This document shows, piece by piece, positions 3,128 through 48,269 of a DNA stretch of 64,000 bases. The first letter of the stretch is position 1, and each line of letters begins with the position of its first letter. Source of the stretch: Candidatus Latescibacterota bacterium (GTDB lineage Bacteria > Latescibacterota > UBA2968 > UBA8231); assembly GCA_965204725.1 (NCBI GenBank), contig OZ242005.1:4160001-4224000 (forward strand), read 5' to 3'. A program made the position numbers and the translations under genes. A model generated the notes under the pieces. The model made no database searches, had not been told where the DNA came from, and was given only the letters and a program-made list of their open reading frames with translations.

Positions 3128-3135
3128 GTCGTCTC

Positions 3136-5028: not shown

Positions 5029-5038
5029 TTCAGCCTCC

Positions 5039-6718
5039 TCATGTTTGGCGGACGAGGGCCTCCACCTGTGTGCGGAAGACCTCAATTTGCGCCGCGTATT
5101 GGTGGCGCAATTGGATGATGAACTGCCCAAAGAGCCGCTCCTGCTTTTGGCGGCGAACCAACGCCCGGGCGCGGTGCTCGGCTTGCGCGAAGGGCCTCGG
5201 GGCGGCGTCGATCGTCGAATCGAGCAAGCGGAAAATGGCGTAGTACGGGCCGCTAATCGGCTCGGGGCTTAGCACCTCGGCCGCAGCGACCTCCAAGGCA
5301 ATAGGACCGATGAGGGCACCGATTTTTTGCCCTTGCGCCGCCTCAAAGAGCGGGACGAACTGTTGCTTCTCCCAAGGATGCAGGTGAAACTCGCCTTGGT
5401 TCGCTCGGCCGCGCCGGCGCAGGGTGTGCTCGGCCGCGAGTGCGCCCAAGTTGCCGCCGCGCTCCACTTCCTCGCGCAACGCGAGTGCCTCCTCCTCGGT
5501 GCGGAGCAAAACCTCCTGCACGGTGATCGATTCGAGGGGGCGGAAAAGGTCTGGGTGGCGGTCGTAGAACGCACGAGCTTCTTCGCGGCTGGCGAAGACG
5601 CCATCAACCACGTCCCGACGCATGGCCACCAGCAGGTTGGACAGCCACCGCCTTTGAAACCAAGCCACCACTTCTTCTTCGCGGTCAATGCCTGCGGTAT
5701 GTGCGCCGGCCAAGAGCAGGGCGCGCGGCTCGACGATGTCATTGACGAACCAGTCGAACCGCTCGGGCGCGTCTGCTGGGAAGCCGACGCCTAGCGCACG
5801 GGCAAAATCGAGCAGGTCGCCGATGGTAAAGACGCCGCTCGCGTGCTCGTAGATAGGCTGCTCGCGCTCGGCCGCAGAAAACGCCTTCGCACCCTGCCCG
5901 ACGCGCCCGCGCACTCGCTCCAAGGCTTGCGCGTGAATCGCAAAATCGAGTTCCTGCCGCAAGCGGGCCGACAGTGCCTGCACGGCTGGCGGCAGCTTCT
6001 CCTTGAGCAACTCGGCCTCAATGACCGACTGTACAACCGAGAGCGCGACCGGTCTTTCGGCTGTCACCTCGTACACGCCGAATTGGTCGTTGAAGAACAC
6101 CGGCTCCGAGAACTGACCCGGTTCCAGCGGAAAGACTTCCTCCTGCAAGATGCGTGGATACAACTCGTCCTTGAGTAGGGAGCGCCCCCTCTCTAGCCGG
6201 GTCTCGGCGAGCAAGTTGCGGTCGGCATAGAGGTCAAAGTCGGCACCGCGCTCCAAGGCCGCCTTGATTGCGTACGCCTCTTGTCGCGTAGCTACGACGA
6301 TGCGCCGCACCTGCACGGCGCGATCTCGCCCTGTCTTTTGCTGGTGGGCCAGCATTTCCTCTTGCGTGTGGACGATCTTGTCGTGGACCTCTAGCTGCAA
6401 AAAACGGCGCAAGACGCGATCGCTATGTAGTTTGTCCATCTTGCGGCGGAAGTCGGCGCGCTGGTCGAGGCCCCGCTTTTTGGCCTCTAAGACCATGAGC
6501 TCCTTGTCGATCATGGTCTGCAAGTAGTCGAAATAGGCGTCAGCACCCGTCTTTTTGCTCCGCAGATCGGGGTGTAGCCTTTCTTCAAACTCCAGCAGTT
6601 GGGGAACGTCAATTTCCACCTCGCCGACTCGGGCCACCACCAAATCCTCGGTGGGTGGCCCGCAGGTCCATAAAACGAGGAGCCACAGCCAATATGCCGC
6701 CTGTTTCGCTCTACTCAC
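5039..6718 (-). CDS. SurA/PrsA-like foldase with two PpiC (parvulin) domains, probable lipoprotein
   Basis: Hydrophobic N-terminus ending WTC; VVARVG, YLQTMIDKELMVLEAKKRGLD; two parvulin-like repeats (VRRIVVATRQEA..IKAALERGADF; VQEVLLRTEEEA..LREEVERGGNLGALAAEHT). Confidence 0.8.
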   Translation of the reverse strand: MSRAKQAAYWLWLLVLWTCGPPTEDLVVARVGEVEIDVPQLLEFEERLHPDLRSKKTGADAYFDYLQTMIDKELMVLEAKKRGLDQRADFRRKMDKLHSDRVLRRFLQLEVHDKIVHTQEEMLAHQQKTGRDRAVQVRRIVVATRQEAYAIKAALERGADFDLYADRNLLAETRLERGRSLLKDELYPRILQEEVFPLEPGQFSEPVFFNDQFGVYEVTAERPVALSVVQSVIEAELLKEKLPPAVQALSARLRQELDFAIHAQALERVRGRVGQGAKAFSAAEREQPIYEHASGVFTIGDLLDFARALGVGFPADAPERFDWFVNDIVEPRALLLAGAHTAGIDREEEVVAWFQRRWLSNLLVAMRRDVVDGVFASREEARAFYDRHPDLFRPLESITVQEVLLRTEEEALALREEVERGGNLGALAAEHTLRRRGRANQGEFHLHPWEKQQFVPLFEAAQGQKIGALIGPIALEVAAAEVLSPEPISGPYYAIFRLLDSTIDAAPRPFAQAEHRARALVRRQKQERLFGQFIIQLRHQYAAQIEVFRTQVEALVRQT

Positions 6719-9566
6719 TAAGCCCTGCTTGTATGGTGACAAACGTCAAACCACTGGTTTCGGTCCTGGCCCTCTGCGCGGCGCGCTCGATCTGCCGCTT
6801 GTCGATGCGAAGCCCCACTTGCGACATCAGCTTATAGCCCAAGTACGAGGTCGTATTGGACAATTGCACGGCCAAGGACGTCTCGTCGTAGTCCCCGGTG
6901 GGATCGTCCGGGGTGACGGCACTCTCGTCCACGACCAAGTCGCGGAAGCGCAAGTACTCCGCGCCGAGTTGTATGACCGAGCGTTTCATAAAGGGCACCT
7001 TGACCAGTACCGAGGCCAGTACGCTCCAATCGCGCCGCTCGGCCATGGGAGCCCCGAGCTGCCGCTCGACATTGAACGGGGTGTCGTCCATGAACAGCTC
7101 TTGCTTGAGGCGCGGCAACGCGGTTATGCGGCCCAGATGCACTGGGTACTCGGCCTTGTTGATCAGCCCCAAGCGCCGCGCATTGCGTTGCAAGGGGCGG
7201 CCATCGCGGTCAACGGCATCTTCTCGCCGCTGCTGTATGAATTCGTACAGCAGCTTGCCCTCGCCGGCAAAGCCAGCGCGGCGACCCTCAGCCCCTATCC
7301 ACAGCTTGTTGACCAAGGCGTCGCCCATGCCCAGCGGATCGCGAATGGCGATCATGTTGCCCGAGGAATTGCTCGGGCGACCGAGCACGGGGCGCGGTTG
7401 AATCCACTGGACCAAGTCTTCGGCGATCGCGTCGGCCACCCACTTGAACGAATTATACGCCGTCAGTGTGCCCAATCCGGCAAAGCTCTGCTCGTACGCA
7501 AGCAAGGCATAGTACGTGCGGTTGCACGCCCCGGTCGTCGGCTCGCGCTCCCACACCTGCCCAGTCGTCAGCTTGAGCTCGGGCCGGAGGTCCGCGCTCA
7601 GATAGGCGTTGTACCCGCGCCGGTCGCGCTTGTAGGGGTAGTCGGGCTCATCGTCGTTTTCAAAGCGGTCGCCCCAGCCATTGTTGTTCAAGTCGAGGGC
7701 AAAAAGGTACTCGGGCCGATCGACATTGTAGCGGAGAAAAGGCTCTTCGTAGTCGGGCAGGAAATTGGGACGCTCGCGCAGATCGTTTTGATTGAAGTCG
7801 GAAATGAAGTCGTTGTTCTCGTCGAGACCCGGAAAGACCGCGTCGTCGGCAAAGCCCTCAAAGGTGCGGGCGCGGAGGCCGCGCTGGTCGGCGGTGCGCC
7901 CGTCGTCGAAGCGGCGCTTTTGGTCGTTGATGCGGTCGTTGTCGTCGTTGTCATCGACAAAGTCGTACCCGTGCCGCGACCGCGCTTCGGCGTCGTTGGA
8001 CCAATCCACCCGGCCGCTGCTATCGACAAAGCGCGGGCTCGTGTTGTACTCGGCATCTAGGCCGAATGCCTCGCCAAAAAAGAAAAACGGGGCAAAGCGA
8101 CGCGAGACATTGAGCATCCAGCCGAGGGCCGCGCGATCGCCGCCAATGCCCGAGGACGCCTTGTGCGTATCCCGCGTCCGCGTCGGGTACTGGGTGAATT
8201 GGTGGTTGACGTTGAATTCGCCATACACGCGGAAGCCAGCCCAATCGTCGGCCTGTAGCGTCAGCCCGGCCACCTGCGTCGCCGTCGGCAGCCCGTAGTC
8301 AAAGACGACCGTGCGCTGGTTGGAGTTGTCCCAGACGTTGCCCTCGGCTCGGGCGACGGTGCGAAACTGCGGCTGCTCGCCGCTGGGGTTGTTGTCGGTC
8401 TGGCGGTTGGACGTGACTTCTACCTTGTAGTCGTTGCCCAACACCAAGCGGAAGCGCACCCGGCTGATTTGGTTGACCAAGTCCGCGCTCGGCACTGCCG
8501 CCTCTAGGTCCAAGACCGCTGGATCGTCGTCGGAAAACACGTATTCGAGCAAGATCTGGCTCGCCTCGCCCCGGCCCTCGGCCGTCAGAAAACCACCCCG
8601 CTCAATGCCGCCGACGATGCGCGGCGCGAAGCCAATCTGGCTGCCAATCAGCAGGGTGTCGCGCTCGCCGATCCGCGTTTCAATTTCAATGTCGCTGCTA
8701 AACAGCACGGCCCCACCGCCCCCGTCTGCGGGCGAGTCGTCGGTCAGCCGCACCACGATGCGGTCGATGCGTCCGTCTAGCTGGCCGCTGGTCAGCTTGC
8801 CCTTGAGCGGGTGGCCTTCAAAGCGGTCGGAGGCGGTCCGGCCGTTGTGCGCGTTGAGAAAGGTGCCGCCGATCCTCGTCGTAGCACCCAAGTCCCAGAC
8901 CACGCGCCCGCCGACGAGGTTGGTGAAGTTGTCCTCTGTCACGGGAAAAGGGTCCGTGCGGAAAAGCGGCAGGTTGATCCGCGACATGAGCACGGTAGCC
9001 GTCAGGCGATCGGCCGCGTAGTTGAACATAACTCCATTATACGCGGTCTTGCGAAAGGTCATGGGCGTTAGCATGGCGAAGATCTCGTCGCCGATGAGCA
9101 CTGAGAAGTAGTGCTGGCCCTTGGCGTCGCCGGCAATGACCAAGTTGTTGAACCACGAACCGTATTGGCCAGCCTGCAAAATGCCCGAGCCGCCCGAGCC
9201 GATCGGCTGGACCTGACGCCAGTCGTAAATCAACCACCCCTTGTTCAAGAAGCGCCCGTAGAGGTCGTAGAAGTACCCGCCCTCCAAGGCGGGATCGAGG
9301 TAGCGCCGGTAGGGGTCGCGTGCGTAGTTGGTATAGCCCCACTGCCGGCGGTACTCGCCGGCAACTTCCGACGGCAGATACCACTTTTGCAATGAGGGAT
9401 AGACGGCCTCCATGCGGAGTCCCGTGCCGGCCGAATAGTAAATCGGCTGCCCCGCTTCGATGCGGCCCAAGCGGTGGCCGTAGTCCTCGCGTTGGGCGTT
9501 GAGCGGCGCGGCCCAGAGTAGCGCGACCGAGCAGAGCGCACCGACGCGGCGCAAGCGGGCGTTCAT
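6711..9566 (-). CDS. Large secreted/outer-membrane hypothetical protein B (951 aa), predicted beta-barrel with acidic Ca-binding-like loops
   Basis: Signal peptide; paralog of 9571-12327; DDNDDND, DENNDFISDFNQND, DLNNNGWGDRFENDD; alternating strands at the C-terminus ending TFVTIQAGLSE. Confidence 0.75.
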   Translation of the reverse strand: MNARLRRVGALCSVALLWAAPLNAQREDYGHRLGRIEAGQPIYYSAGTGLRMEAVYPSLQKWYLPSEVAGEYRRQWGYTNYARDPYRRYLDPALEGGYFYDLYGRFLNKGWLIYDWRQVQPIGSGGSGILQAGQYGSWFNNLVIAGDAKGQHYFSVLIGDEIFAMLTPMTFRKTAYNGVMFNYAADRLTATVLMSRINLPLFRTDPFPVTEDNFTNLVGGRVVWDLGATTRIGGTFLNAHNGRTASDRFEGHPLKGKLTSGQLDGRIDRIVVRLTDDSPADGGGGAVLFSSDIEIETRIGERDTLLIGSQIGFAPRIVGGIERGGFLTAEGRGEASQILLEYVFSDDDPAVLDLEAAVPSADLVNQISRVRFRLVLGNDYKVEVTSNRQTDNNPSGEQPQFRTVARAEGNVWDNSNQRTVVFDYGLPTATQVAGLTLQADDWAGFRVYGEFNVNHQFTQYPTRTRDTHKASSGIGGDRAALGWMLNVSRRFAPFFFFGEAFGLDAEYNTSPRFVDSSGRVDWSNDAEARSRHGYDFVDDNDDNDRINDQKRRFDDGRTADQRGLRARTFEGFADDAVFPGLDENNDFISDFNQNDLRERPNFLPDYEEPFLRYNVDRPEYLFALDLNNNGWGDRFENDDEPDYPYKRDRRGYNAYLSADLRPELKLTTGQVWEREPTTGACNRTYYALLAYEQSFAGLGTLTAYNSFKWVADAIAEDLVQWIQPRPVLGRPSNSSGNMIAIRDPLGMGDALVNKLWIGAEGRRAGFAGEGKLLYEFIQQRREDAVDRDGRPLQRNARRLGLINKAEYPVHLGRITALPRLKQELFMDDTPFNVERQLGAPMAERRDWSVLASVLVKVPFMKRSVIQLGAEYLRFRDLVVDESAVTPDDPTGDYDETSLAVQLSNTTSYLGYKLMSQVGLRIDKRQIERAAQRARTETSGLTFVTIQAGLSE

Positions 9567-9570
9567 GCCG

Positions 9571-12327
9571 CTACTCCAGCCCCGCGTACACGGTTATGAA
9601 ACTGGTGCTAAAGGCACTGATTTCACTGGCCCGCTCCAAGCCTTCATTCCCGACAATCACCCGCTCCTCCCACAGGCGCGTGTAACTAAAGCCAAACTGC
9701 GTCGTCAGCCGGTAGCCCAAGTAGGAGCTGGCACTGGACCATTGCAGGGCCAGCACCAAGTTGCGGAAGTCGCCCGTAGGCCCGGCCGGGCCGTTGGCGA
9801 GCTGGTCGTCCTCGTTGAGACCCAAGTCCCGGAATAGGGAAAATTCAACGCCCCCTTCTATCAGCGACTGGCTCAACAGCGGATGGCTCAGCAGCACGAT
9901 GCCCGTGCCAACCCACTCCTCGCGGTCCTCGGCGCGCGCTTCGAGCGCAGTCTGGTTGAGATACTCGCTCTTGACCTTGGGCTGCAACCTAAAGCCAGCC
10001 AAGCCACAGGTGTAATCCGCCTTATTGATCAACCCAATTAAGTGGCTGCCTCGGTTGAGCACCGGCCCTTTGACGCGGCTTTTGAACGCCTCGCCCTGCT
10101 GCCAAAAACGCTCGTACTTGAACTTGTTGCTCGCGTTTAGGTTGGCGAGCGGCTGATAATCGAGCTGTAAATAGGTCGTGTTGATCCACGTGTCCCGCGC
10201 CGGCAGAATGTCGCGCACCAGCGCGAGCGAGTTGACTTCGAGGTGGGGCGTCATCTCGCGCCGGTCGTCGGCGATATCGTCGGCCACGCGCCGCAGCATC
10301 TCAAAGGCTCGCAACCGGCCCCAAGTGAAGTCGCGGTCATAGGTCAGCAGACTATATGTGGCGCGGTTGCGCCGATCGGAGGCCATGCTCTTTTCGCTCA
10401 ACCTGCCCAACGTCAGCCGGGTGTGCGGGTTGAGGAAGACCCCGGCATACAGGTTGTAGCCCCGGCGATCGGCCTTGTAGGGGTAGTCGGGCAAGTCGTC
10501 GTTTTCAAAGCGGTCGATCCAACCATTGTTGTTTAGGTCGATGCCGAACAAAAACTCCGGGCGATCGGCCGCGTAGCGGAAGAACGGTTCTTCGTAGTCT
10601 GGGATGCGGTTGTTGAGAATGCGGTTGTCGTTTTGGTTGAAGTCGGAGACAAAGTCGTTGTTTTCGTCCCACCCCGGGAAGACGGCCACATCGCCGCCGC
10701 CCTGCGAGAAGCGGAACCAATCGGCCGAGCGGTCTTGGTCGTCGTTGTCGTCAACCAACTCGTACAGGGACGTGCGCGGATTGTCGTAGGTAATGCCCCC
10801 GTTGTCATCTACGATAAACGAACTCGTCGAGTACTCGGGGTCCATGCTGTACGCCTCGCCAAAAAAGTAAAACGGGGCGGCCACTTTTGCGGCGTTGATC
10901 ATCCAAGCCTCGGCGTCGCGGGCATGCGTGGCCAGCGAGCGGTCGGCGGCTTGTCGCGCCGGGTTGGGGTACTGGCTGTACGCACGGCTGACATCGAATT
11001 CCGCATATAGGTCAACGCCCTTAATATCCGCGGCGTCCAAGGTAAAGCCGTATATCAAGCGAGACGACGGCAGCCCGTAGTCGAAGACGACCCGCTGCTG
11101 ATTGGAATTGTCCTGCACATTGCCCTCCGCGCTGAGGACGTCGAACAACGCCGGGGATTGATCCTCAACGTCTTGGCCCGTCAGCGGCAAGACCGGCAGG
11201 GCGTACGTGCCCGTCTGCCGGTCGGACCAAACCTGCACCTTGTAGTCATTCGCCAAGACCAAGTCGAATTGTACCGCGACGATCTCCGAGGGGCGCGGGC
11301 CGGTGTAGGCAATATCCGCGAAGTCGTAGTTGATGACGATCTTTTCGTCGCCGTCGGCCGCTAAGGCCCCTTCCTTGGGCGCCCCGCCCGAGACCACGGG
11401 CCACCGCGCCGGATCGGCGACCACGTCGCGGAGCCTAAACTGCTCGCGCTCGCCCGTCTCTGGATCCTCGCTCGTCAATACGATGTCGTGCGAAAACAAG
11501 GTTGCCCCACCCCGCCCATCCTCGGGCGAGTCGTCGCTGAGGACGAGGGCAATGCCCGATATGGGCAGGCTGCCCTGATTGGCCGCGAGGGTCCCGACGA
11601 AGGGGTTGCGCTCAAACGCATCGGCCACGGTGGTAGAGTTGCGCGCATTGACCAAATTGGCCCCCACGGCCACGAAATCGCCGATCTGGACCACGGCGCG
11701 GCCAGCCATCAGGTTGGTCGCGTTGGAGACCGCACTGGGGTCGTCGGGCGTACTGCCGATGACCGGGCGGCTCACCCGCGAAAAGAGCAGCGTGCCCTCG
11801 TACTTGTCCGCAGCAAAGTCCATCTGCACGCCGCTGAAGGCCGGCTTGGAAAAGGTGAGCGGGGTTAGGGTCGTGCGGATGCGCTCGCCCACCGTGATCG
11901 CATAGTAGAACTGCCCCTGCGAGTCCGAGCTAATGGTGACCGCGTTGAACCAGTTGTTAAAGCGCTGATCTTTGAAGATGGACGAACCAAACTGGACGGG
12001 CTGGTTCTGGCTCCAGTCATAGATGAGCCAGCCGCGCGTCAAATAGTTGCCATACAGGTCGTAAAACGGCGAGCCTTCAATGGTAGTGCTGACGTAGCGT
12101 TCGTACGCGTCGCGGGCGTAGTTGGTGTACTGCCACTGCTGCCAACCATAGTCGGCAAACAGCTCCTGCGGCACGTACCAGCGCTTGACCGTTGGGTCCA
12201 AAGCGTCGAAAAGCACCCCCGGCCCGCGCGGTTCGTAGGTAATCTCCGCTCCCCAGCGCCGGCCTTGGGCATCGGCGCTCAGGGCCGCGCCGAGCAAGGC
12301 GGCGAGTATCCACCGTAGGTCTCTCAT
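9571..12327 (-). CDS. Large secreted/outer-membrane hypothetical protein A (918 aa), paralog of B
   Basis: Signal peptide MRDLRWILAALLGAALSADA; shared YTNYARD, FYDLYG..L..GWLIYDW, PDYEEPF, DLNNNGWIDRFENDD; ends SFITVYAGLE. Confidence 0.75.
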   Translation of the reverse strand: MRDLRWILAALLGAALSADAQGRRWGAEITYEPRGPGVLFDALDPTVKRWYVPQELFADYGWQQWQYTNYARDAYERYVSTTIEGSPFYDLYGNYLTRGWLIYDWSQNQPVQFGSSIFKDQRFNNWFNAVTISSDSQGQFYYAITVGERIRTTLTPLTFSKPAFSGVQMDFAADKYEGTLLFSRVSRPVIGSTPDDPSAVSNATNLMAGRAVVQIGDFVAVGANLVNARNSTTVADAFERNPFVGTLAANQGSLPISGIALVLSDDSPEDGRGGATLFSHDIVLTSEDPETGEREQFRLRDVVADPARWPVVSGGAPKEGALAADGDEKIVINYDFADIAYTGPRPSEIVAVQFDLVLANDYKVQVWSDRQTGTYALPVLPLTGQDVEDQSPALFDVLSAEGNVQDNSNQQRVVFDYGLPSSRLIYGFTLDAADIKGVDLYAEFDVSRAYSQYPNPARQAADRSLATHARDAEAWMINAAKVAAPFYFFGEAYSMDPEYSTSSFIVDDNGGITYDNPRTSLYELVDDNDDQDRSADWFRFSQGGGDVAVFPGWDENNDFVSDFNQNDNRILNNRIPDYEEPFFRYAADRPEFLFGIDLNNNGWIDRFENDDLPDYPYKADRRGYNLYAGVFLNPHTRLTLGRLSEKSMASDRRNRATYSLLTYDRDFTWGRLRAFEMLRRVADDIADDRREMTPHLEVNSLALVRDILPARDTWINTTYLQLDYQPLANLNASNKFKYERFWQQGEAFKSRVKGPVLNRGSHLIGLINKADYTCGLAGFRLQPKVKSEYLNQTALEARAEDREEWVGTGIVLLSHPLLSQSLIEGGVEFSLFRDLGLNEDDQLANGPAGPTGDFRNLVLALQWSSASSYLGYRLTTQFGFSYTRLWEERVIVGNEGLERASEISAFSTSFITVYAGLE

Positions 12328-12342
12328 TAAGGCCCTCCCTAA

Positions 12343-14508
12343 TCAGTACACCAACTCGACGACGCGGACCGCGCTCTCGCCGCCCGCATCGCTGGCCAAC
12401 GTCACGCGCACCAAGTAAATGCCCGGCGGCAGCGCGGCCCCACGCCCATCCGCACCGTCCCAAGGCATGGCGTACGAACCGCCGCCTTGGAGGCCGGAGA
12501 ATAGTTGGCGCACCCGGCGTCCGGCCAAATCGACGATTTCCACGTCAACCGGGGCCGGGCTGACCAACCGGCTCAGATCGTAGTACACGTGCGTCGCGTC
12601 GTTGATTCCATCGCCGTTGGGGCTAAAGGGCCGGGGCTCGGAGCGCACGTTGATCAGCAGGGGACTGCGGCCAGCCAGCGGCACATCGACCGAAAGGCCC
12701 CGGCTCGTCGCCGCGCCCACAGCCACAATATCGTCGTCGCCGGGCGCCAACGCGGCCACGTTGCCGGCGACGACCTCCTGCCCCACCTCTCCCTCGGCCC
12801 TGTTGAAGGCAAAACCGGCGAACTTGGTGCCGTAGCGCAACACGCGGCTGCGAAAGCGAATTCTGAGCTGGGCCGTCCGTCCGGTCGCCAGTTCGCTCTC
12901 GGCAATCAGGGGAAAGCGCACGCGAAAGCGACGCGCACCAACCGACTCAATGGCAAAGCGTCCGCTCTCGTCGGTCACCGGCAGCGCAGAAAGATCGGCC
13001 CTTGAAAAGTCTGCGGCCTCGACCCGACCATCGGCCGCTTCTACTTCGATGGACTCAATGGCCTCGACCTGCACCGGCGTGGCGATCTCAAAGCCGTCAA
13101 AGCCCGTATCTACGCCCGACCGAATGGAGGTTGGCATCACTGCATAGATGAAATCCACCGGCTTGCCCAAATCGACCTGCCGCGGAAAAATTTCTCCGAG
13201 AATCTGCGCGGCCGGCGGCGGCGTAGCCACGGTGAAGGCCAGCGGGCCGATGCCTGTGGCCCCGTCTAAGTCCTCGCTGAGAAAGTCGATGCGGAACTGT
13301 ATGTACCGCCTAGGCCCAGGCGAAACAATCGGCACGCCCAACTGGCCATCCTCAATTTCTGCCTCGGTCAACGCGGCCCCCAAATCGTAGGGTGAGGACC
13401 ACGGACTCCAAGCGTCTAGGTCGGCGACCACATTGCCCCGCTCGGCCCCCAAGCCCTTGTAGTCGTCCAGCGACAGCGAGATGGCGTTGCGCTCCGCCAG
13501 CGGCAGCGCACCAAAGAGCGCCCGCGCCCTCTCCAGATCGACTTGGTCGAGATTGACCTCGCCGCCCTCGGTCTCAACCGCGGCATTCTTTTGCCACGGC
13601 ACCTCGACTTGGGTCCCTTGAAAAAAGAAGCGCCGGGTATAGACCAAGGGATTGTCGTCCAAGCCCGTGCGGGTGCGGATGCGCGCACTGGAGAAACCAG
13701 CCGGGCCGACGCTTTCCTCCACCCAGCGAATGGTCCCCCACAAGCCCAAATCTGGGCCGAGGTCGAAGATGTTGGATAGGTATTCGGCCGTGGGCACGAA
13801 GCCGGTGCCAAAGACGCGGAACTCGGCGATCTCAAAACCGCTGCTGGTGCGCGACTGCAAGCGAATGAAGCGCACAAATTGCGGGGGAATGCTCAGACTG
13901 ACCAGCGCGTCTTGGTTGGCAGCATCCAACCGAAACGAGCGCCATTCCGGGCCGCCCGCGCCCTGCGTCTGTTCGCTGCCATCGTTGAAAAACAGTTCGT
14001 AGCCGCGGATGAAGTCCTCTTGGAAAGGCGCGGCGGGAAAGTCTGGGTGGCCGTTGCGCGGGAAAAACTGGACGCGCTGGACCCCAAAGCGAGCACCGAG
14101 GTCGAAGTCCATGGCCATGCCGCGGATGACAGCCACGTTCTTGCGCTCCAAGGCCGTTTCACCGTCGCCGTCAATCATCGTCTCTAGCTGCGACTCAATC
14201 CCCGCTTCGAGAACCGTCGGCGAGGTGACCGAGCCGCCGCGCCCGAGTATGCCGAGGGCTAGATTGGTGCCTTTGACGACGTTTTGCGGAAAAATCCAAC
14301 CCGCCCGTCCCTCGGGGTCAAAGTCGATCACTCCGCCCGGGGTGTTGCCGCGCTCGACGTCTCTGGCCCCGGTCGGGAAAATCGCCGGTATCTGGCCGCC
14401 GCCATCTTGCCAAGACGATCCGCTCGCGCCGCCGATGACAATGCTTTGCGTCTCGGCCATGCCTTGCAGGGCCGCTAGCAACAGCAGCGCGATCGGCAAC
14501 CCGTACAT
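12343..14508 (-). CDS. Secreted protein with discoidin-like domain and C-terminal FlgD-Ig/CHU_C-like domain (paralog 3)
   Basis: GGGAGG RBS before ATG 14508; signal peptide; FDLGARF, WSPWSSPY, SPGPRRYIQF; FSPNGDGIND...DLAGRRVR...WDGADGRG..LPPGIY. Confidence 0.75.
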   Translation of the reverse strand: MYGLPIALLLLAALQGMAETQSIVIGGASGSSWQDGGGQIPAIFPTGARDVERGNTPGGVIDFDPEGRAGWIFPQNVVKGTNLALGILGRGGSVTSPTVLEAGIESQLETMIDGDGETALERKNVAVIRGMAMDFDLGARFGVQRVQFFPRNGHPDFPAAPFQEDFIRGYELFFNDGSEQTQGAGGPEWRSFRLDAANQDALVSLSIPPQFVRFIRLQSRTSSGFEIAEFRVFGTGFVPTAEYLSNIFDLGPDLGLWGTIRWVEESVGPAGFSSARIRTRTGLDDNPLVYTRRFFFQGTQVEVPWQKNAAVETEGGEVNLDQVDLERARALFGALPLAERNAISLSLDDYKGLGAERGNVVADLDAWSPWSSPYDLGAALTEAEIEDGQLGVPIVSPGPRRYIQFRIDFLSEDLDGATGIGPLAFTVATPPPAAQILGEIFPRQVDLGKPVDFIYAVMPTSIRSGVDTGFDGFEIATPVQVEAIESIEVEAADGRVEAADFSRADLSALPVTDESGRFAIESVGARRFRVRFPLIAESELATGRTAQLRIRFRSRVLRYGTKFAGFAFNRAEGEVGQEVVAGNVAALAPGDDDIVAVGAATSRGLSVDVPLAGRSPLLINVRSEPRPFSPNGDGINDATHVYYDLSRLVSPAPVDVEIVDLAGRRVRQLFSGLQGGGSYAMPWDGADGRGAALPPGIYLVRVTLASDAGGESAVRVVELVY

Positions 14509-14519
14509 CGCAACCTCCC

Positions 14520-17012
14520 TCAATACGCCACGTGAACGAGGCGGTGCCTCGCCGTGCGTTCCACGTGCGAGTCGTCGTTGGGCACCACTCCCACCTCTAA
14601 TAGGTACAATCCGGGGGCGACCAACGCGCCGGATTGATCCTCGCACGACCAGCGCAGGGCGTACTCGCCGCTGACCAAGGGCCGCGTCTCCCGCCAGTGC
14701 CGAATCAGTCGGCCGGCTAGGTCGTAAATCCGCACGTGGAGCGGCTGAGTGCCGGTCAGCTTAGTGACCGCGAATGAGAACGCCAACTCGTCGTTGATCC
14801 CATCCCCATTCGGCGTCGCGATCCCACGGCCAATCCTCAGATCGCCCAGCACGTGCCGCCCGCCTTCCGGCCCTACCAACAGCATCCCCTGCCCGGTCGC
14901 CAACTCCGTTGCATCCGCTGGGTCAACCCGCTGCCAAGAATTTTCAAGGGCCGAATGTCCCAACGACGCCTTGAACACGGCACCGGGCAAAAAGAGGGCG
15001 GTGGTGAATTGCACCTCAATCAGGTCGGCTGAGGACGGACCGACGATCTCGTTTAAGCGCACCCACAAAGTGTCTGGAGCGGTCGCGACTACTTCGGCTG
15101 CGGTCGCTAGTTCCGCGCTCTCCCATTGGGCTTCGCGCCCCAAGCGCAGCCCGCCAAACTCCAACGCCATGTTGTCCGGTGCCCGTATCTGCACTTCGTC
15201 AAACCCCATGCTCTGGGGCGCGAAGCTCGGTTTGATGAAAAGCGAAAGCTCCTGCTTCTCGCCCAACGCGCCGACGACGCTCGGTTCGATCTCACCCAAC
15301 AGCCGGCGGGCCAGCGGCTCGACGAAGTGGAGCCGAATGGAGCGCAGCACGGCGGCGCGGTGTGGATCGCCCGAGAGCAAGCGGGCCTTGAGCAGCAGAA
15401 ATTGGCGCGGGCTTGGCGAAGTGATCGCCGCTCCCGACGCCTCGTAGGGCAAGCTCCACGCGCTCCAGTCGGCGCCGGGGGCTTCTGTCGTGTCGATCCG
15501 CCCTTTGCTGAAAAAGCCCAAGCCGGCGTATGCCTCAGCCGAAACTTCGCCGCCGCCGCTGTTGAAATAGCGGTACTCTTCGACCAACTCGCTGCCGGTG
15601 CGCGTCTGAATTTCGATAAAGGTCCCCAAGTCGGCGTCGCCATCCCACTCAAGCGAGACCAAGTTTTTCGAGCGGCCCAAGCGGATGAGCGGCGAAACCA
15701 GCTCGACCTCCGGCTGAAAGCCCTCGCCGTAGAACTGCACCTCGCGCGGTTTGAACTGTCCCCCGCCCCAGAACAAAATCCGCGCAAAGCGCGTGTGCGC
15801 CGGCGCGAACGCATCCACGTCGTACACGTCGCCGGTAAAGTGGCCAGAAGTGGCGCGATTGCGCCGCGAGACCTGCGTCGTCCACACCAGCGAGCCGTCC
15901 GCGGCCAGCGAACCGTCGGAAGTCTGCAAATCGTAATTGGGAAAGCGGCTGCGCTGGCGGTCGTAGTAAATCTGGTGCCGATCGATCCAGAAGGAAGAGC
16001 CTAAGTCGAAGAATAACTCCCGCACCTCGTCGGTGCTGGTAAAGGCCAAGGACGTCTCAAAGAGGCCGTCGAAGAAGGCCGTTGCCGGCGCGTTGTCCAA
16101 GAAGGTCAGCAGCGCGACGCCTTTGCGCTTGGCCAAGCCCAGCGAGATGTTTTCCCCAAGAGTCTGGACCTCTAATTCGGCCAGTCGCGGCCGCTCGCGG
16201 CGGTAGCGGCGGATCGCACCGCGCAACGCGGGGTCAACCACCTCGTACGTGGCCTCGCTGACCTGCACTTGGCCCGCGCCGGCCTTTTTGTAAAAATCCA
16301 CCGCGCCCCGGTCCACAGCCCCTAGCTGGTCGTATTGTTCAGCCGACACCTCGGCCGCGCGCGTACTATCCGTGCCGGTGATCGTCACGCGCACGAAGCG
16401 GATGTAGTCGCCCACCATGCGCCCTTCGCGGTCAAAGCGCGTGGGGCGCAGCTCAACTTCAAATTCTCGTTGGTCCTTGTTCGACTTCAAGGTGCGGAAG
16501 ACCGGGTTGAATCGGCGCTGACCTTTTGTTACCTCCCCGCCATCCGAGGTCAAAACCGCGAATTGCAAGAAGGGATCGCCCAGTTCCTCGTCGACGAATT
16601 TGAGCCGGATGTGGGTGGCCGCGACCAGCCGTCCCAAATCGACCTCAAACCACCATTGGCGCACTGGGCTGGCCGGATCGGGCTCCCAATAGGTGCTCAA
16701 GTCCCCGTCGAAAAGATGGACTAGATCCGCGGCCCGAGTGCCCGCGCTGAGGGCGTCGAGCAGGGTCGCGTCCTCCGAGCCTTTGCCGCGCTTGATAAAC
16801 GCCGCGATGTCTGACGTGGCCAGTATGTTCTTGGCCACAAAGTGCGGACGCACGGCCCCGGTTTCGTCTAGGTCGAGCGCACCGGCGGGAAAAGCCCACT
16901 GCTGCCAGTGCGCCTGCCGCTCAACGACGACCTCGTTCCCGGCAATGGTATGGCCCTGCCCCCAAGCGGCGACAACGCCCAAGATGCTCAGCAACAACGC
17001 AGCATTCAACAA
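14520..17012 (-). CDS. Secreted protein with two discoidin-like domains and C-terminal FlgD-Ig/CHU_C-like domain (paralog 2)
   Basis: Signal peptide; FDGDLSTYWEP..WWFEVDLG; WSAWSLPY, SPSPRQF; TPNGDGIND...IYDLAGRLIR...VAPGLY; ends in Y. Confidence 0.75.
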   Translation of the reverse strand: MLNAALLLSILGVVAAWGQGHTIAGNEVVVERQAHWQQWAFPAGALDLDETGAVRPHFVAKNILATSDIAAFIKRGKGSEDATLLDALSAGTRAADLVHLFDGDLSTYWEPDPASPVRQWWFEVDLGRLVAATHIRLKFVDEELGDPFLQFAVLTSDGGEVTKGQRRFNPVFRTLKSNKDQREFEVELRPTRFDREGRMVGDYIRFVRVTITGTDSTRAAEVSAEQYDQLGAVDRGAVDFYKKAGAGQVQVSEATYEVVDPALRGAIRRYRRERPRLAELEVQTLGENISLGLAKRKGVALLTFLDNAPATAFFDGLFETSLAFTSTDEVRELFFDLGSSFWIDRHQIYYDRQRSRFPNYDLQTSDGSLAADGSLVWTTQVSRRNRATSGHFTGDVYDVDAFAPAHTRFARILFWGGGQFKPREVQFYGEGFQPEVELVSPLIRLGRSKNLVSLEWDGDADLGTFIEIQTRTGSELVEEYRYFNSGGGEVSAEAYAGLGFFSKGRIDTTEAPGADWSAWSLPYEASGAAITSPSPRQFLLLKARLLSGDPHRAAVLRSIRLHFVEPLARRLLGEIEPSVVGALGEKQELSLFIKPSFAPQSMGFDEVQIRAPDNMALEFGGLRLGREAQWESAELATAAEVVATAPDTLWVRLNEIVGPSSADLIEVQFTTALFLPGAVFKASLGHSALENSWQRVDPADATELATGQGMLLVGPEGGRHVLGDLRIGRGIATPNGDGINDELAFSFAVTKLTGTQPLHVRIYDLAGRLIRHWRETRPLVSGEYALRWSCEDQSGALVAPGLYLLEVGVVPNDDSHVERTARHRLVHVAY

Positions 17013-17024
17013 GGCTCCTACTCC

Positions 17025-18974
17025 TCAATAAGCGACGGCAATGGGCCGGATATGCACTTGGCGTTCCCCGCCGCTTTCGACCTCGACTTGGCAGATATAC
17101 AGACCGGGGGCCACCGGCTGGCCGGCTTCGTCTCGCCCATCCCAGCGGCGCGGATGCCGCCCCGCGCCATCGGCCCCGGCATGTACGCGCCGCACCAAGC
17201 GACCGCTCAAATCCCGCACCAGCACCCGCACGGGCACCGGCTCGGTCACTTTGAGCAGCTCGTAGGCGATCTCCACCTGATCGTTGATTTGGTCGCCGTT
17301 GGGTGTAAACGCCGCGGCGCTCAGCGACACGGCCCCCAAGACCTTATCGTCTAGGGTCATTGCCTGAACCGAAAGTTGGTTGCCATCTACCAGCTCGTCG
17401 GCCTCGCCAGCGGCCACGAGTTGCCCGATCTCCTCTGGCTCTGTGCTGTCGATCACCCGGCCGGCAAAAATGGCCCCGTAGCGGAAAATTTCAGCGCGCA
17501 CATCCACTTCGAGCAGCTCTCGGCTGCGCGCAACGTCCAGCCGCGGGAACCCCAAAACGACGCCGGCATCCTCCGCTACGGCCCTGAAATCCGCCACCGG
17601 GACCCCGCTGAGGCGCACGGCCTCCACACCGGCGATCCGGCCGCCGACCAAGCGCAGGTCCAAACCGTCAAATCCTTTGTCGCCGGGTTCAATCGTCGGG
17701 CGCAAGGCATAGGTGAAAGTGCGTTCCTCAGCCACTGCGGCCCGCCAAGGATTGACCTCGCCCACTAAGCCGGTCACCAAGCGCGGAGAAACGGCGAATT
17801 CGAGATAGTCGAGCTGGCCGCCCGCTCGGCCAAAAGATTTGAATTCTATTCCGAACTGCACGTAGCGGTGGGAGCGCGTCGCCCGCAGGGCTACGCCCGC
17901 GCTGTCGGCGAATTCGTACGGCGACGACCACAGTTCCCATTGAGCGGTGTCGTCGGTGATGGCACCGCGTGCGATCGGCCCCAAGCGACCGTAGCTTTTG
18001 CGGGTCAGCAGCTTGCCGTCCTCGCCAAAGGGCACCTGCTCGTCGCCGCGGAAAGTCTTGCGCCAGTACACCAGCGGCGTCTCGTCGGCCCCAGCGCGCG
18101 AGCGGATCTCCACTCGCGCCCCTTCGTCCTGCCGCCCTCCCCAGCGCACCCAGCCCAAGTTGGCGAATTCGCCTAGGTCGAGAACATTGGACTGGTACGA
18201 GGCCGAGCCTTGGAAACCGCCGCCGTACACCTCCAATTCGGCCAAGTCCCAGATCTCGTCTTGCGGCATCACGTGGATCATCAAATAGCGGATGGGCGTT
18301 CCGTCTAGCTCGATGTCGAGTTGGGGGTTTTTGTTTTCCCGGATTTCCTCGACCACCTGTAGCTCAATGCCCTTTTTTTCGTCGGCCTCTCCCAGCGACC
18401 GATTCAGCGCACTCGCTCCGACGAATTCAATCTCGTCAATGCCGCCGCCGGCCTCGGTCTGCGCGGCAACGATGACGTGGGCGACCGAGCGCTCGCTGCC
18501 TGCCGGTGGGACGAAGCGGATCAACCGCGTCGCAAAATCGCCGCCGAGATCAAAGAAAAAAGCCGTGCCGCGGAAGGTATGGGCGTGTTCTCGCGGGCGG
18601 GTCTCTAAGAAAAACGTCGTCGGGTCCCCGTCGGTCACCACGCGCAGCTCGTCGCCGACATCTTCAAAGCCATTGTACGCGCCGTGCTGGAAATTGCCGC
18701 CGACCCCGCTCAAGCTGGTCGCCATATTATCGCGCTCGTTGTAGAAAAACGGCGTGATTTGCTCACTGAGCGAAAGCCCAAAGCTCTCGCCGCCCAAATT
18801 CTTGTCTAAGCCGGCCCAACTCAACTGGCGGAACTCGGCACCGGCCTCCACCTCGGCCGGCGGCGGCAGACTCTCGCCGCCGATGCGATAGACGACCAAG
18901 GCCGCGCTTGGCTGACCGCCGAGCAAGGCCAACAGGGCCGCGATGAGCCGCGTCGTGCGCTGCAATTTTTTCAC
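17025..18974 (-). CDS. Secreted protein with discoidin-like domain and C-terminal FlgD-Ig/CHU_C-like domain (paralog 1)
   Basis: GGAGG RBS, GTG start, signal peptide; TDGDPTT, FFDLGG, WELWSSPY; FTPNGDQIND...DLSGRLVR...WDGRDEAGQPVAPGLY. Confidence 0.75.
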   Translation of the reverse strand: MKKLQRTTRLIAALLALLGGQPSAALVVYRIGGESLPPPAEVEAGAEFRQLSWAGLDKNLGGESFGLSLSEQITPFFYNERDNMATSLSGVGGNFQHGAYNGFEDVGDELRVVTDGDPTTFFLETRPREHAHTFRGTAFFFDLGGDFATRLIRFVPPAGSERSVAHVIVAAQTEAGGGIDEIEFVGASALNRSLGEADEKKGIELQVVEEIRENKNPQLDIELDGTPIRYLMIHVMPQDEIWDLAELEVYGGGFQGSASYQSNVLDLGEFANLGWVRWGGRQDEGARVEIRSRAGADETPLVYWRKTFRGDEQVPFGEDGKLLTRKSYGRLGPIARGAITDDTAQWELWSSPYEFADSAGVALRATRSHRYVQFGIEFKSFGRAGGQLDYLEFAVSPRLVTGLVGEVNPWRAAVAEERTFTYALRPTIEPGDKGFDGLDLRLVGGRIAGVEAVRLSGVPVADFRAVAEDAGVVLGFPRLDVARSRELLEVDVRAEIFRYGAIFAGRVIDSTEPEEIGQLVAAGEADELVDGNQLSVQAMTLDDKVLGAVSLSAAAFTPNGDQINDQVEIAYELLKVTEPVPVRVLVRDLSGRLVRRVHAGADGAGRHPRRWDGRDEAGQPVAPGLYICQVEVESGGERQVHIRPIAVAY

Positions 18975-18995
18975 GTAACACCTCCAAGAAGAAGA

Positions 18996-19018
18996 GGGGA
19001 TGGAACCAGCCCATCCCC
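18996..19018 (-). terminator. Intergenic stem-loop after the first operon gene
   Basis: GGGGATGG-7nt-CCATCCCC, followed on the minus strand by TCTTCTTCTT and then the next RBS. Confidence 0.5.
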
Positions 19019-19049
19019 CCTCGTCCTTGCATCCTGCGATCCGGCCCGC

Positions 19050-20000
19050 TTACTGGACGTAAGCAGACTTGATGCGACCCCAGCTATTCGCCTCAACCGA
19101 GCTCTCAATCGCGCTGAAATCGACGCGGGGATCAACGGGTGCCAGCAGGAAATCCGTGGCCGAAGCCGTGGTTTTCCACACGTCGCTGGCGCCGGAAAGC
19201 GACCACTGGCCGGAGTGCTCGGCGTCTTGCCCAACGCCGCCGTCGGCCCCGGCTACATCGCTGTCGAAGACCGCCCAGCCCAAGCCGGTGATGTCGCCCT
19301 CGTTGTAGTCGTGGATGACGCTGCCTTCCGGGTCGTTAAAGAGAAAGTCGTCCCACGCCTGACGCCGCACCTCGATAAAGGCCGTGGCCTCGCCGCTGCC
19401 AATTTCGCCGTCCAAGCGAAAGCCGTGGTCGGCGTAGGGCAGTTCGTCGTGCCACTGCGCTTGGGTCATCCAAAACCACGACCAACTCTCTTGGCCATCG
19501 GGGCCGAGGTTCGGGAAGCGGGTGTGGTAGGACTGCGCCCAGCGGCCTTGGGCCAAGGTGCGCTCCTCTTCGTCCTCAATGTCGGCCGCGCCAAAGCGCA
19601 TCTGCTCGCCGCCGTGGTCGCCGTCAACGTGCATTTCCCAGCTATCGTCGCCGCCGGCCACGCCGCCCATGGCGTCGCGATCGTAGAAGTCGTCAAAGCG
19701 CTCCATCATAAAGTAGAGGCTGTTGGCCGCCTCGCTCCAACCGACGATGACGCGGAAGTTCAAGTCGCCGAAATCGGCCGGCTTTTCGCCGTTGAACGCG
19801 GTGTGATCGGCAAAGGAAATCAAGTAGTCCTCGGGCACGATCGACCATTCGGACAAGTCGCCATCCAGCGTTGGCTCAAGGCCCGCCGGCCACTGGAAGG
19901 CCGTGCGCACAGTCCCCTCGGGCACGTGCGCCGTAGCCGTGGCGACGACGCCCATGCACAGGGCCAGTGCGAGCAAAACAGTGATTCTCTTCAAAATCAT
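19050..20000 (-). CDS. Secreted CBM9/DOMON-like protein with C-terminal VE..SWGRIK motif
   Basis: AAGGAGG RBS, ATG 20000, signal peptide; PTLDGDLSEW, VIVGWSE..NSLY, DSWEMHVDGDH, ITGLGWAVFDSD; ends SVEANSWGRIKSAYVQ. Confidence 0.7.
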   Translation of the reverse strand: MILKRITVLLALALCMGVVATATAHVPEGTVRTAFQWPAGLEPTLDGDLSEWSIVPEDYLISFADHTAFNGEKPADFGDLNFRVIVGWSEAANSLYFMMERFDDFYDRDAMGGVAGGDDSWEMHVDGDHGGEQMRFGAADIEDEEERTLAQGRWAQSYHTRFPNLGPDGQESWSWFWMTQAQWHDELPYADHGFRLDGEIGSGEATAFIEVRRQAWDDFLFNDPEGSVIHDYNEGDITGLGWAVFDSDVAGADGGVGQDAEHSGQWSLSGASDVWKTTASATDFLLAPVDPRVDFSAIESSVEANSWGRIKSAYVQ

Positions 20001-20144
20001 CCTCCTTGGTTTAGTAAAAACGCCCGCCACAGCGGGTCCTCTCTGAATTAAAACATAATGCTTTCGTTGCACGACCTAACGGCCGCGAATGGGACGTTTC
20101 ACTGCAACTGCATTCAGGTAACGACCTCCTTTCTTGGTTGTAAT

Positions 20145-21668: not shown

Positions 21669-21770
21669 GTCGTAGATTCCAGAGTGGCGAGTACAAGTAC
21701 AAACGTTGCAAGTGTTTGTCGGGCAGGTAGTATATATATGTACCTACCAAAAACTAAGTCAAGAAAGAAA

Positions 21771-22946: not shown

Positions 22947-23074
22947 TTACCCACCGGCAACCGGCTCGAACGGCAGGGGTTTGAGAAGCGCGTCAAAGAG
23001 TCGCATCGTATATTCACTAAGAAGCGGTCTGAAAACCCACCTTGGGGCCGTAGAGACGGTCTCCGTTCTTCCAA

Positions 23075-23121
23075 GGATCGAGGGCATCTTGCCCTCGTCG
23101 AGGGCGGGACGCCCTCGATCC
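23075..23121. repeat. REP-like double palindrome
   Basis: GGATCGAGGGC-atctt-GCCCTCG-t-CGAGGGC-gggac-GCCCTCGATCC: two hairpins inside an 11-bp outer inverted repeat. Confidence 0.65.
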
Positions 23122-23205
23122 CGGACGCAGTGGGAGCAGCAGAAAATGCGTACACAAAGCAAGTGTCGCGTACTTGTAAGATCTCTACGACTTGGGAGAG
23201 CAGTT

Positions 23206-25482: not shown

Positions 25483-25490
25483 TCCGTCCA

Positions 25491-32985: not shown

Positions 32986-33023
32986 GAGGACGCCGGATCT
33001 CATAATGGACCAACACCCATAGC

Positions 33024-33854: not shown

Positions 33855-33998
33855 GACAGCCTCCTGACTTTGTTGGGCTTCAGAACATAGGGGCACGAGT
33901 AGCCGAGGCCAAGCCCTGCTGAGCTTGCGGCGATTTGTTCGCACGCTCTATATTTGCTGCCGCAAAAGCCAATATGACCCCTGCCAGAGGAGGATTCG

Positions 33999-48223: not shown

Positions 48224-48269
48224 AGGGAACTCCTTTCTCAAAGTCGCCGCGGCCAAAGGCAGCACGACC

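Follow-up and report, generated by a model that had tools for sequence, protein, structure and literature searches.

A row of nine co-oriented genes lies on the minus strand, at positions 3136–21668, of a 64,000-nucleotide stretch of the genome of a Candidatus Latescibacterota bacterium (assembly GCA_965204725.1, contig OZ242005.1, positions 4,160,001 to 4,224,000), a stretch that is referred to here as the window. The row begins with a TPR-repeat lipoprotein gene, continues with genes for a protein with a predicted carbohydrate-binding fold (A), three paralogous secreted proteins (B1, B2 and B3), two giant predicted beta-barrels (C1 and C2) and a parvulin-type lipoprotein (D), and ends with a gene of an unnamed family (E). 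The locus is one copy of a multi-copy Latescibacterota cell-surface cassette. Its favored interpretation, to which a probability of roughly 0.4 is assigned, is that lectin-like B proteins sorted by a type IX secretion system (T9SS) dock on cognate giant barrels for the purpose of glycan capture, possibly feeding uptake. The observed basis for this interpretation may be considered in terms of gene content, the folds of A and C1, paralog numbers, synteny, the presence of T9SS outer-membrane parts and the enrichment of particular neighboring genes.

Organization and spread of the cassette

The features of the locus are listed in Table 1. An earlier note on this DNA had singled out seven co-oriented and closely packed genes, A through D, all with export signals. 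All seven are present on the minus strand in the order described. According to the translations, A, B1–B3, C1 and C2 carry Sec-type signal peptides, while D and the TPR protein each have a lipobox. From A to E, the genes are spaced by 75, 12, 11, 15 and 4 nt, then by a 32-nt overlap and finally by 10 nt. Two of the starts were set within longer open reading frames (ORFs): the listed ORF of A extends to 20072 and its 316-aa orthologs begin at an internal ATG (20000), and the listed ORF of B3 extends to 14646 with an internal start taken at 14508. While the seven genes are real, the proposed unit of seven is probably too small as E, and the TPR lipoprotein gene upstream, travel along in orthologous loci. 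With E only 10 nt behind D and retained in orthologous loci, the unit probably comprises eight genes, E included. A scan for promoters and terminators gave results at chance (3 vs. 2.9 expected; 16 vs. 19.4 expected). A terminator-like hairpin is located at 20036–20023 on the minus strand, between the stop codon of the TPR gene and the probable start of A.

Table 1. Genes of the cassette row and the adjoining FG-GAP / UnbV_ASPIC genes, in window coordinates.
Feature	Position	Strand	Remarks
TPR-repeat lipoprotein	20145..21668	-	507 aa; Pfam TPR_2 E 1e-55; signal ends in lipobox; upstream of A
A, predicted secreted CBM9-fold protein	19050..20000	-	316 aa; AlphaFold2 model and structure match
B1, secreted, FlgD-Ig / T9SS-like C-terminal domain	17025..18974	-	649 aa; FlgD_ig E 2.3e-11
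B2, secreted, discoidin (F5/8 type C) and weaker C-terminal domain	14520..17012	-	830 aa; Pfam
B3, secreted	12343..14508	-	721 aa from internal start; FlgD_ig 37 bits
C1, predicted outer-membrane beta-barrel, unnamed family	9571..12327	-	918 aa; AlphaFold2 model
C2, paralog of C1	6711..9566	-	951 aa; 41% identity to C1
D, parvulin-type peptidyl-prolyl isomerase lipoprotein	5039..6742	-	567 aa; Rotamase_2 E 8.7e-14
E, unnamed family	3136..5028	-	630 aa; 10 nt downstream of D
FG-GAP / UnbV_ASPIC (CRTAC1-like) gene	22816..25482	+	Pfam FG-GAP_3 and UnbV_ASPIC
FG-GAP / UnbV_ASPIC gene	25413..27449	+	placed by BLAST: as seed finds the family's 42 members

What the earlier note had treated as a single locus is instead one of 28 cassette loci in the same genome (5.43 Mb, 94% complete, 10% contamination). 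The genome holds 38 C genes, all within these 28 loci, together with 99 full-length B, 26 D and 23 A genes. Inside the loci are found 72 of the 99 B genes, 21 of the 26 D genes and 18 of the 23 A genes. The four families occupy 395 kb, or 7.3% of the genome. Two layouts are discernible. Six loci present two adjacent barrels in the order A-B1-B2-B3-C1-C2-D. The other layout has one barrel and often an extra lipoprotein of ~250 aa between A and the first B; the family of this lipoprotein has no Pfam match, and eight of its nine copies are near C genes (e.g. loci L102 and L103).

A scan for related loci, performed with a 25-sequence alignment and one genome per species, identified at least 565 confirmed relatives among at least 620 candidate stretches. 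The locus counts given below refer to the best 80, which by title consist of 62 Latescibacterota or Latescibacteria, 16 Gemmatimonad-, one Bryobacterales and one "uncultured bacterium". The gene order, whose absence elsewhere would have spoken against the earlier proposal, recurs in related genomes. Eleven of 14 orthologous loci (C1 93–96% identical) show the whole row TPR-A-B-B-B-C-C-D-E; of the other three, two are cut by contig ends and one is without D and E matches. A TPR match precedes A in 12 of the 14. At 59–71% C1 identity, the order A-B-B-B-C-C-D is retained in 24 of 29 loci. Across the 80 related loci, a B gene is present in 79 and a D match in 64, and 78 ORFs of the C2 subfamily follow C1. 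B3-type genes are always positioned directly upstream of C1-type barrels, with 74 B3-type ORFs ending just before the C1 start, and the B1 subfamily holds its position as well. B1, B2, B3, C1 and C2 each form a distinct subfamily, and their relative order is preserved. The E gene has a narrower distribution: 13 E-type ORFs were found in the related loci, 12 of them 89–94% identical and in orthologous loci, and the gene is kept only there. Six E copies exist in the genome, two of them near cassettes, with no enrichment around the cassettes. Members of the TPR family near C genes number 45 of 85 in the genome.

In a sample of 151 genomes from the phylum, the C family was identified in 96, which represent 12 of 14 families. 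Within the family to which the window belongs it is universal (64 of 64 genomes), and it is missing from all 48 genomes of two other families; there are up to ~90 first-look candidates per genome. This concentration in one phylum supports the suggestion that the system is probably lineage-specific. In pairwise comparisons, C genes that are more alike also tend to have more similar D genes (r 0.41) and A genes (r 0.39) as partners, and both values exceed all 200 shuffles. Cassettes tend to duplicate as blocks, which explains the C-D and C-A correlations; therefore, the correlations do not show contact.

Predicted structures of the encoded proteins

The C1 protein was modeled with AlphaFold2 from a 78-sequence alignment, with a predicted local distance difference test score (pLDDT) of 85.7 and a predicted template modeling score (pTM) of 0.82. 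The model is made almost entirely of long beta hairpins with ~24 strands. Its topology was read from the DSSP list, without coordinates, under the standard outer-membrane arrangement in which both termini are periplasmic and the periplasmic turns are short. In this arrangement, each turn assigned to the periplasm is 2–6 residues long, and all long insertions are on the outer face (residues 185–201, 233–410, 453–466, 496–620, 684–712, 744–759, 793–801 and 835–848). The insertion at 233–410 forms a beta-sandwich and the one at 496–620 is acidic. A conserved N-terminal segment (22–129) was modeled at low confidence. From the model, C1 is predicted to be an outer-membrane barrel. The two paralogs of ~930 aa with beta-strand C-termini and acidic loops that the earlier note described are confirmed from the sequences and the C1 model.

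The acidic region is the best conserved part of the C family, with a mean commonest-residue frequency of 0.58; the strand blocks reach 0.36–0.50 and two further loops 0.23. One loop within it fits the EF-hand pattern, and the outward acidic region is probably calcium-binding, judging from its sequence.

A Foldseek search with the C1 model identified SlpA, LptD, MtrB, SprA and ushers (E ~1e-7 to 1e-5) with template modeling (TM) scores of 0.17–0.24, the top match being the SlpA barrel (8ae1, E 1.5e-7). Usher (FimD, PapC) and FhaC/TamA-type barrels were also among the fold matches. With VIA, C1 matched CymA with a Z of 13.5 and SlpA/SDBC (7zgx) with a Z of 11.5 over 408 residues. The longest VIA alignments extended over 418 residues (XusA, 9gbc, Z 9.2) and 415 residues (BtuB, 8p97, Z 9.0). 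All of these are matches to generic barrels.

At the level of sequence, the barrels are unmatched to any characterized family, as the earlier note had anticipated. Neither C1 nor C2 has a Pfam match even at E ≤ 1 or any match in NCBIfam, including the PorP model (TIGR03519), and PDB profile searches with both C subfamilies identified no relevant sequence relative. The C genes coincide with none of the 17 genes, real TonB-dependent receptors located elsewhere in the genome, that score above the cut-off for the Pfam barrel model TonB_dep_Rec. Also in keeping with the earlier description, no signature of a plug or TonB-dependent receptor, SusD or PorP was found in the Pfam and NCBIfam scans of the locus proteins; for SusD/RagB, ten locus proteins were scanned, and the TPR protein matches generic TPR models only. 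At E ≤ 0.001, C1 has 1046 relatives in 90% clusters, with 720 representatives at 50% identity. Among the 120 best relatives listed, those with names are all "hypothetical" and none has a precomputed Pfam domain. No longer, fused forms of C were found, which is weak evidence. The C family of barrels is itself undescribed.

A longer, distant C subfamily (about 970–1030 aa) is homologous over the full length (hhalign probability 100). At genome positions 90000–110400 and 2155000–2167300, its members (about 890–1036 aa) are found beside ExbB-like genes, two 139-aa ORFs and TPR/YfiO-like genes of 1040–1090 aa. This arrangement hints at an energized variant of the system.

The AlphaFold2 model of A, calculated on 24 relatives (pLDDT 75.3, pTM 0.79), superimposes on the CBM9 domain of Thermotoga maritima Xyn10A (1i82). 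VIA aligned 187 of 189 residues with a Z of 20.1, a root-mean-square deviation of 2.3 and 18% identity, and Foldseek returned an E value of 6e-9 with a TM score of 0.76 on the target. The next VIA matches were a putative carbohydrate-binding protein from Bacteroides (Z 16.8) and the DOMON-like proteins EbdC (Z 11.6) and NxrC (Z 11.2). On the strength of the model, A is predicted to have a CBM9 beta-sandwich fold, in agreement with the CBM9-like assignment made earlier. The relationship is not evident from sequence families: none of 24 A sequences has a Pfam match, none of the 24 matches CBM9_1 at E ≤ 1, and the A of the window has no NCBIfam match. A weak alignment (E 0.026) was obtained between the A-family profile and the N-terminus of one DUF5916 protein.

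The two best conserved parts of A are residues 23–60 (mean commonest-residue frequency 0.69) and the last 16 residues (0.71). The tail, which in the window reads SWGRIKSAYVQ at its end, follows the pattern T-S-V-E-x-x-S-W-G-x-I-K plus 3–8 residues (window 19050–19100). In its strict form, this pattern ends 33 ORFs genome-wide, and in a loose form 51. The A family, with its 23 paralogs in the genome, accounts for 19 of the 33; among the remainder are small secreted proteins, some of them FGE-sulfatase-like. Outside the A family, a CBM9_1 match (1.4e-9) was obtained for one ORF with the tail. An ORF with a T9SS-like tail is found within two genes of 21 of the 33 strict-tail ORFs, compared to a background of 10%. 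The A tail looks like a sorting or docking signal. At the other end of the protein, the cleavage site of the signal peptide is predicted at window position 19925–19935 or thereabouts, and by the predicted cleavage (A-x-A, then H) the first mature residue is a histidine in ~20 of the 23 A paralogs, as it is in 23 of the 24 relatives aligned. Such an N-terminus could conceivably bind a metal, by analogy with the histidine brace of copper enzymes.

The three B proteins are paralogs, as described in the earlier note, with B1 and B2 being 28% and 25% identical to B3, respectively. The FlgD-Ig and discoidin domains that had been ascribed to all three are distributed unevenly. FlgD_ig scores above its cut-off of 27 bits in B1 (43.9 bits) and B3, but below it in B2 (19.3 bits), and only B2 has discoidin domains above cut-off (F5_F8_type_C_2, 32.2 bits; F5_F8_type_C, 29.6 bits). 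The B-family profile matches solved F5/8-C domains at residues 91–246 (7jnb, E 1e-6). The best conserved part of the family is the C-terminal domain (0.54, on the same measure of conservation), which is matched by FlgD_ig in 39 of 39 B sequences and, at E ≤ 0.01, by CHU_C in 37 of 39. When the same 39 sequences were compared to NCBIfam, the PorU C-terminal region matched 32, the type B model TIGR04131 matched 23 and the type A model TIGR04183 matched 11; a cut-off is shown for the type A and PorU models only. By sequence, the C-terminal domain of the B proteins may be described as T9SS-like and closest to type B, at scores below family cut-offs.

The D protein had been proposed to contain two parvulin domains. 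One is above cut-off (Rotamase_2 at residues 385–522, 52.8 bits vs. a cut-off of 27) and the second, at residues 151–216, falls just below (Rotamase, 21.1 vs. 21.7 bits). D does not qualify as an equivalent of SurA, PrsA or PpiD: its best NCBIfam scores were 36 (cut-off 303), 33 (cut-off 109) and 22 bits (cut-off 493), and no PDB sequence match was found at E ≤ 0.01. Nearly all of the 26 D paralogs in the genome have a lipobox. For E, no match was found in Pfam, NCBIfam or the PDB.

Secretion, proposed mechanism and alternative readings

Outer-membrane parts of the T9SS core, to which the earlier note had pointed as something to look for, are present in the genome. SprA (485 and 116 bits) and PorU (623 bits) are above cut-off, and a PorV-like gene adjoins PorU (150 bits vs. 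a cut-off of 250). Since SprA, PorU and a PorV-like gene are present and the B tails are T9SS-like, the cassette is probably not the self-contained machine or secretion system that had been envisaged. Inner-membrane DUF6785 proteins and FG-GAP/ASPIC proteins are, in addition, tied statistically to the cassettes. From the sequence of the tails, B export most likely depends on the general T9SS of the genome. About 50 further ORFs outside the cassettes end in a PorU-C-terminal-like domain; since this is the type of domain found on the B proteins, it must be recognized by a general pathway. In Bacteroidota, type B cargo is reported to be anchored by, and genetically linked to, PorP/SprF-like barrels (PMC9143113, PMC12618676). 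The genome has two weak PorP-like genes (44 and 43 bits vs. a cut-off of 90.55), both away from C genes. According to the title of PDB entry 8gl8, the extended SprA translocon contains a peptidyl-prolyl isomerase, which provides a precedent for D. A complex prediction of C1 (22–918) with the C-terminal domain of B3 scored 0.00 in both runs, which were performed without controls, and has no bearing either way.

The neighborhood of the cassettes was defined as the sequence within 10 kb, which amounts to 17% of the genome. Of the 42 FG-GAP/UnbV_ASPIC genes, 28 are located there (binomial p 1.5e-12), as are 15 of 29 genes with DUF6785 and DUF6784 (p 2e-5). The latter encode proteins with 9–12 hydrophobic segments, and no mention of DUF6785 was found in the literature searched. 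PhyH genes are not enriched around the cassettes. A Pfam analysis of 170 of the 255 flanking ORFs identified parts of ABC sugar transporters, GFO/IDH/MocA oxidoreductases, GDSL esterases, a sulfatase and a sodium:solute symporter.

With these elements in mind, the cassette may be pictured as follows. All products would cross the inner membrane by Sec. C1 and C2 would insert in the outer membrane as barrels of ~24 strands with their long loops, including the beta-sandwich and the acidic region, directed outward. The three B proteins, each built of discoidin, beta-sandwich spacers and a T9SS-like tail, would pass the outer membrane via the general SprA-type translocon and stay cell-bound by docking on cognate barrels, much as SprB does on SprF and PG1035 on PorP. 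In this manner the barrels may display lectin-like partners, as the earlier note had proposed. A would contribute a CBM9-type binding module with its own conserved C-terminal tag, and D, as a periplasmic lipoprotein parvulin, may help to fold or hand over barrels or cargo. The finished complex would capture glycans and may feed uptake with DUF6785 membrane proteins or ABC importers, making it the functional counterpart of the polysaccharide utilization loci (PULs) of Bacteroidota without a TonB-dependent transporter. The parts common to all paralogous cassettes, namely the acidic loop of C, the C-terminal B domain and the two ends of A, are candidates for the assembly interface on the basis of sequence, and the more variable parts could carry specificity.

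A more far-reaching version, which is considered somewhat unlikely, would have the cassette as a third outer-membrane machine for nutrient capture, separate from SusCD and porin-based uptake. T9SS-sorted lectins and a tagged CBM9 protein would be held on heteromeric pairs of barrels of a new family via a conserved calcium-binding loop at the surface, and the barrels would also conduct glycan to DUF6785 importers. The 28 cassettes, at 7% of the genome, could then be the main means of substrate acquisition of the phylum, and the histidine of A could mark the copper site of an oxidative helper.

Four RNA libraries from two studies contain contigs 90–95% identical to the locus that cover 23–28 of 30 bins of positions 3000–21700. 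Single contigs bridge E and D (3930–5840), C1 and B3 (11771–14804), and B3 and B2 (12946–16155). In the RNA runs X1 and X3, contig depth is 126–366 over A (window 18600–19850) and ~10–30 over other cassette genes. There is a weak hint here that A is the most abundant transcript, although contig depth cannot rank genes.

Several observations weigh against docking of T9SS-sorted B proteins on cognate barrels. The RNA-library contigs come from relatives, may contain DNA and cannot show transcript ends or levels. The model that scores highest on the B tails is FlgD_ig, whose fold is not peculiar to the T9SS, and in the B1 and B3 of the window CHU_C reaches only ~19 bits (19.2 for B1) against a cut-off of 27, while the type A tail model TIGR04183 reaches 17.7 bits on B against a cut-off of 23. 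For the rest of the T9SS core, GldL, GldM and GldN gave no match in searches whose controls were likewise silent, and the search for GldK returned FGE-sulfatase-like matches only (66 bits vs. a cut-off of 350). SprA is found in 150 of 151 genomes of the phylum and C in 96, so that C does not track the T9SS and is better regarded as an accessory in T9SS-bearing bacteria than as a core T9SS part. C is some three times as large as PorP/SprF and is not matched by the PorP model. The similarity of C genes to one another compared with that of their nearest B genes gave an r of 0.23, which is not above the best shuffle (0.24). Classical glycoside hydrolases are few among the 170 of 255 flanking ORFs scanned. 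Lastly, localization, protein-protein contacts, T9SS dependence, the ligand and transport through the barrel are all inferred.

The same parts may be assembled differently. C1 and C2 could be pores through which oligosaccharides or other large solutes are imported, without TonB or powered by another motor, with B and A held in some other way such as PorU-type attachment. The large predicted barrel resembles the wide-lumen SlpA, LptD and MtrB, DUF6785 proteins are enriched and ABC sugar importers present nearby, and the distant full-length barrel subfamily lies beside ExbB-like and giant TPR genes. PULs show a comparable expansion of paralogous loci. This reading is nevertheless unlikely: C has no plug or TonB-dependent receptor signature, its most conserved part is an outward acidic loop and not a feature of the lumen, and the cassette of the window is without motor genes. 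To a similar degree, it is doubtful that the system serves attachment to particles, host matrix or other cells and not nutrition, with varied lectin adhesins or, held by SlpA-like barrels, a coat resembling an S-layer. The SlpA barrel is the top Foldseek match of C1, but at a TM score of ~0.2 and with no SLH or coiled-coil part in the cassette protein; likewise, two distant C members have weak SlpA_C matches (22.7 and 15.8 bits; cut-off 35), but C1 and C2 are unmatched by SlpA_C even at E ≤ 1. Modules such as FG-GAP/ASPIC, discoidin and Ig-like domains are characteristic of adhesins, and two of the four RNA runs with related sequence are labeled as sponge metagenome. A known type B cargo, SprB, is described as the major gliding-motility adhesin (PMC9143113). 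For pure adhesins, however, the association with membrane transporters and sugar-metabolism genes would be unexpected, and the spread of the C family over so many genomes and families of the phylum also argues against this role.

The least probable arrangement, and a very unlikely one, is a dedicated exporter in which C1 and C2 secrete or assemble B and A with D as their chaperone, in an usher-like or two-partner-like manner that is T9SS-independent. The presence of SprA, PorU and a PorV-like gene and the sharing of the C-terminal domain type by ~50 ORFs outside the cassettes are difficult to reconcile with it, and C has no usher, POTRA or two-partner secretion signature. The fold matches do include FimD, PapC and barrels of the FhaC/TamA type, but these are generic (TM ~0.2). 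What remains in its favor is the D chaperone gene in 64 of 80 loci, the silent GldL, GldM and GldN searches, and the conserved C-terminal tag of A.

Beyond the cassette, the window contains several features of note in their own right. An ORF on the plus strand at 20931–22946 encodes a right-handed beta-helix region (Pfam Beta_helix, E 5e-9), with the two FG-GAP/ASPIC genes coming next. The 5' portion of the ORF is shared with the TPR gene on the opposite strand, and the true start may lie further downstream, as suggested by an internal signal of lipoprotein type. Two tandem genes on the minus strand (41347–44421 and 44433–47354) encode PQQ-dependent dehydrogenase beta-propellers of ~1000 aa (E 1e-182 and 1e-185) with C-terminal ankyrin repeats, an unusual architecture. 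Two stretches have a low GC content relative to the ~62% found elsewhere. The one at 30000–34000 (52%) holds an N6/N4 DNA methylase gene (32044–32985), and the one at 48000–54000 (45–51%) holds two ABC-ATPase-type ORFs and an IS4/5 transposase gene (52895–53710); both are probably acquired DNA. Sulfatase genes are located on the minus strand at 54809–56431 and 60053–61534, one of which ends in a chitobiase/hexosaminidase domain, and another gene for a PhyH dioxygenase is found at 54017–54772. These sulfatase and dioxygenase genes would fit a sulfated-glycan lifestyle.

Significance and comparison with known systems

No description of the cassette was found in the literature searched, which did not cover subscription journals, and no mention of secretion, the outer membrane or TonB was found in PMC12993501. 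If the docking of T9SS-sorted B proteins on giant barrels is correct, the cassette would define a large unnamed family of outer-membrane barrels with 720 clusters at 50% identity. It would also represent the T9SS logic of sorted cargo and cognate barrel scaled up outside Bacteroidota, in a modular form and with a genomic weight like that of PULs. Three features would serve as handles on polymer acquisition by an abundant uncultured phylum, namely the acidic barrel loop, the type-B-like lectin tail and the new C-terminal tag, and the cassette would lend context to DUF6785/DUF6784, the CRTAC1-like FG-GAP/ASPIC proteins and the 250-aa lipoprotein family. It may be Latescibacterota's own way of surface glycan capture.

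Of the structural relatives, the SlpA-type barrels of Deinococcus-Thermus (SlpA_C PF21620; 8ae1, 7zgx, 8agd), LptD and MtrB have in common with C the best Foldseek match and long VIA alignments. In contrast to SlpA, C has no SLH domain, coiled-coil stalk or PDB profile match, and TM scores are ~0.2. No Usher or PapD Pfam match was found in the locus, and usher structures appear only among the generic barrel matches. DUF5916 proteins, in which a CBM9-like domain is fused to a barrel, share the combination of a CBM9-type module and a large barrel that here is divided between separate genes. To our knowledge, DUF5916 has no known function. Its model (PF19313) has three matches in the genome, including two full-length genes, and none of these is a C gene. 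C was rejected as a relative of the DUF5916 barrel (hhalign E 0.34, no relation).

The PULs of Bacteroidota, with SusC and SusD, likewise comprise dozens of paralogous loci with a large barrel, proteins of carbohydrate-binding type, and transport and sugar genes nearby. The cassette differs in that it is without a TonB-dependent receptor signature, plug or SusD, and its binding proteins have C-terminal sorting domains where those of PULs have lipid anchors. In the window, neither a hybrid two-component sensor nor an extracytoplasmic function (ECF) sensor was seen, and glycoside hydrolases are few in the scanned flanks.

The closest parallel is offered by T9SS type B cargo and its PorP/SprF barrels, as exemplified by SprB-SprF of Flavobacterium johnsoniae and PG1035-PorP-PorE of Porphyromonas gingivalis. 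In both cases, type-B-like cargo is encoded immediately upstream of a barrel, there are many pairs per genome, and SprA, PorU and PorV-like proteins are present. The cassette barrel, however, is 918–951 aa in length with ~24 strands, a beta-sandwich insert and an acidic loop, whereas the PorP model spans 292 positions. The cassette also has a fixed set of three cargo subfamilies, often with two barrels, and adds a CBM9 protein and a parvulin lipoprotein. In addition, its host lies outside Bacteroidota, and its B tails fall below family cut-offs. By analogy, the system would appear to work most like type B cargo with PorP/SprF and, in its genomic style, like PULs.

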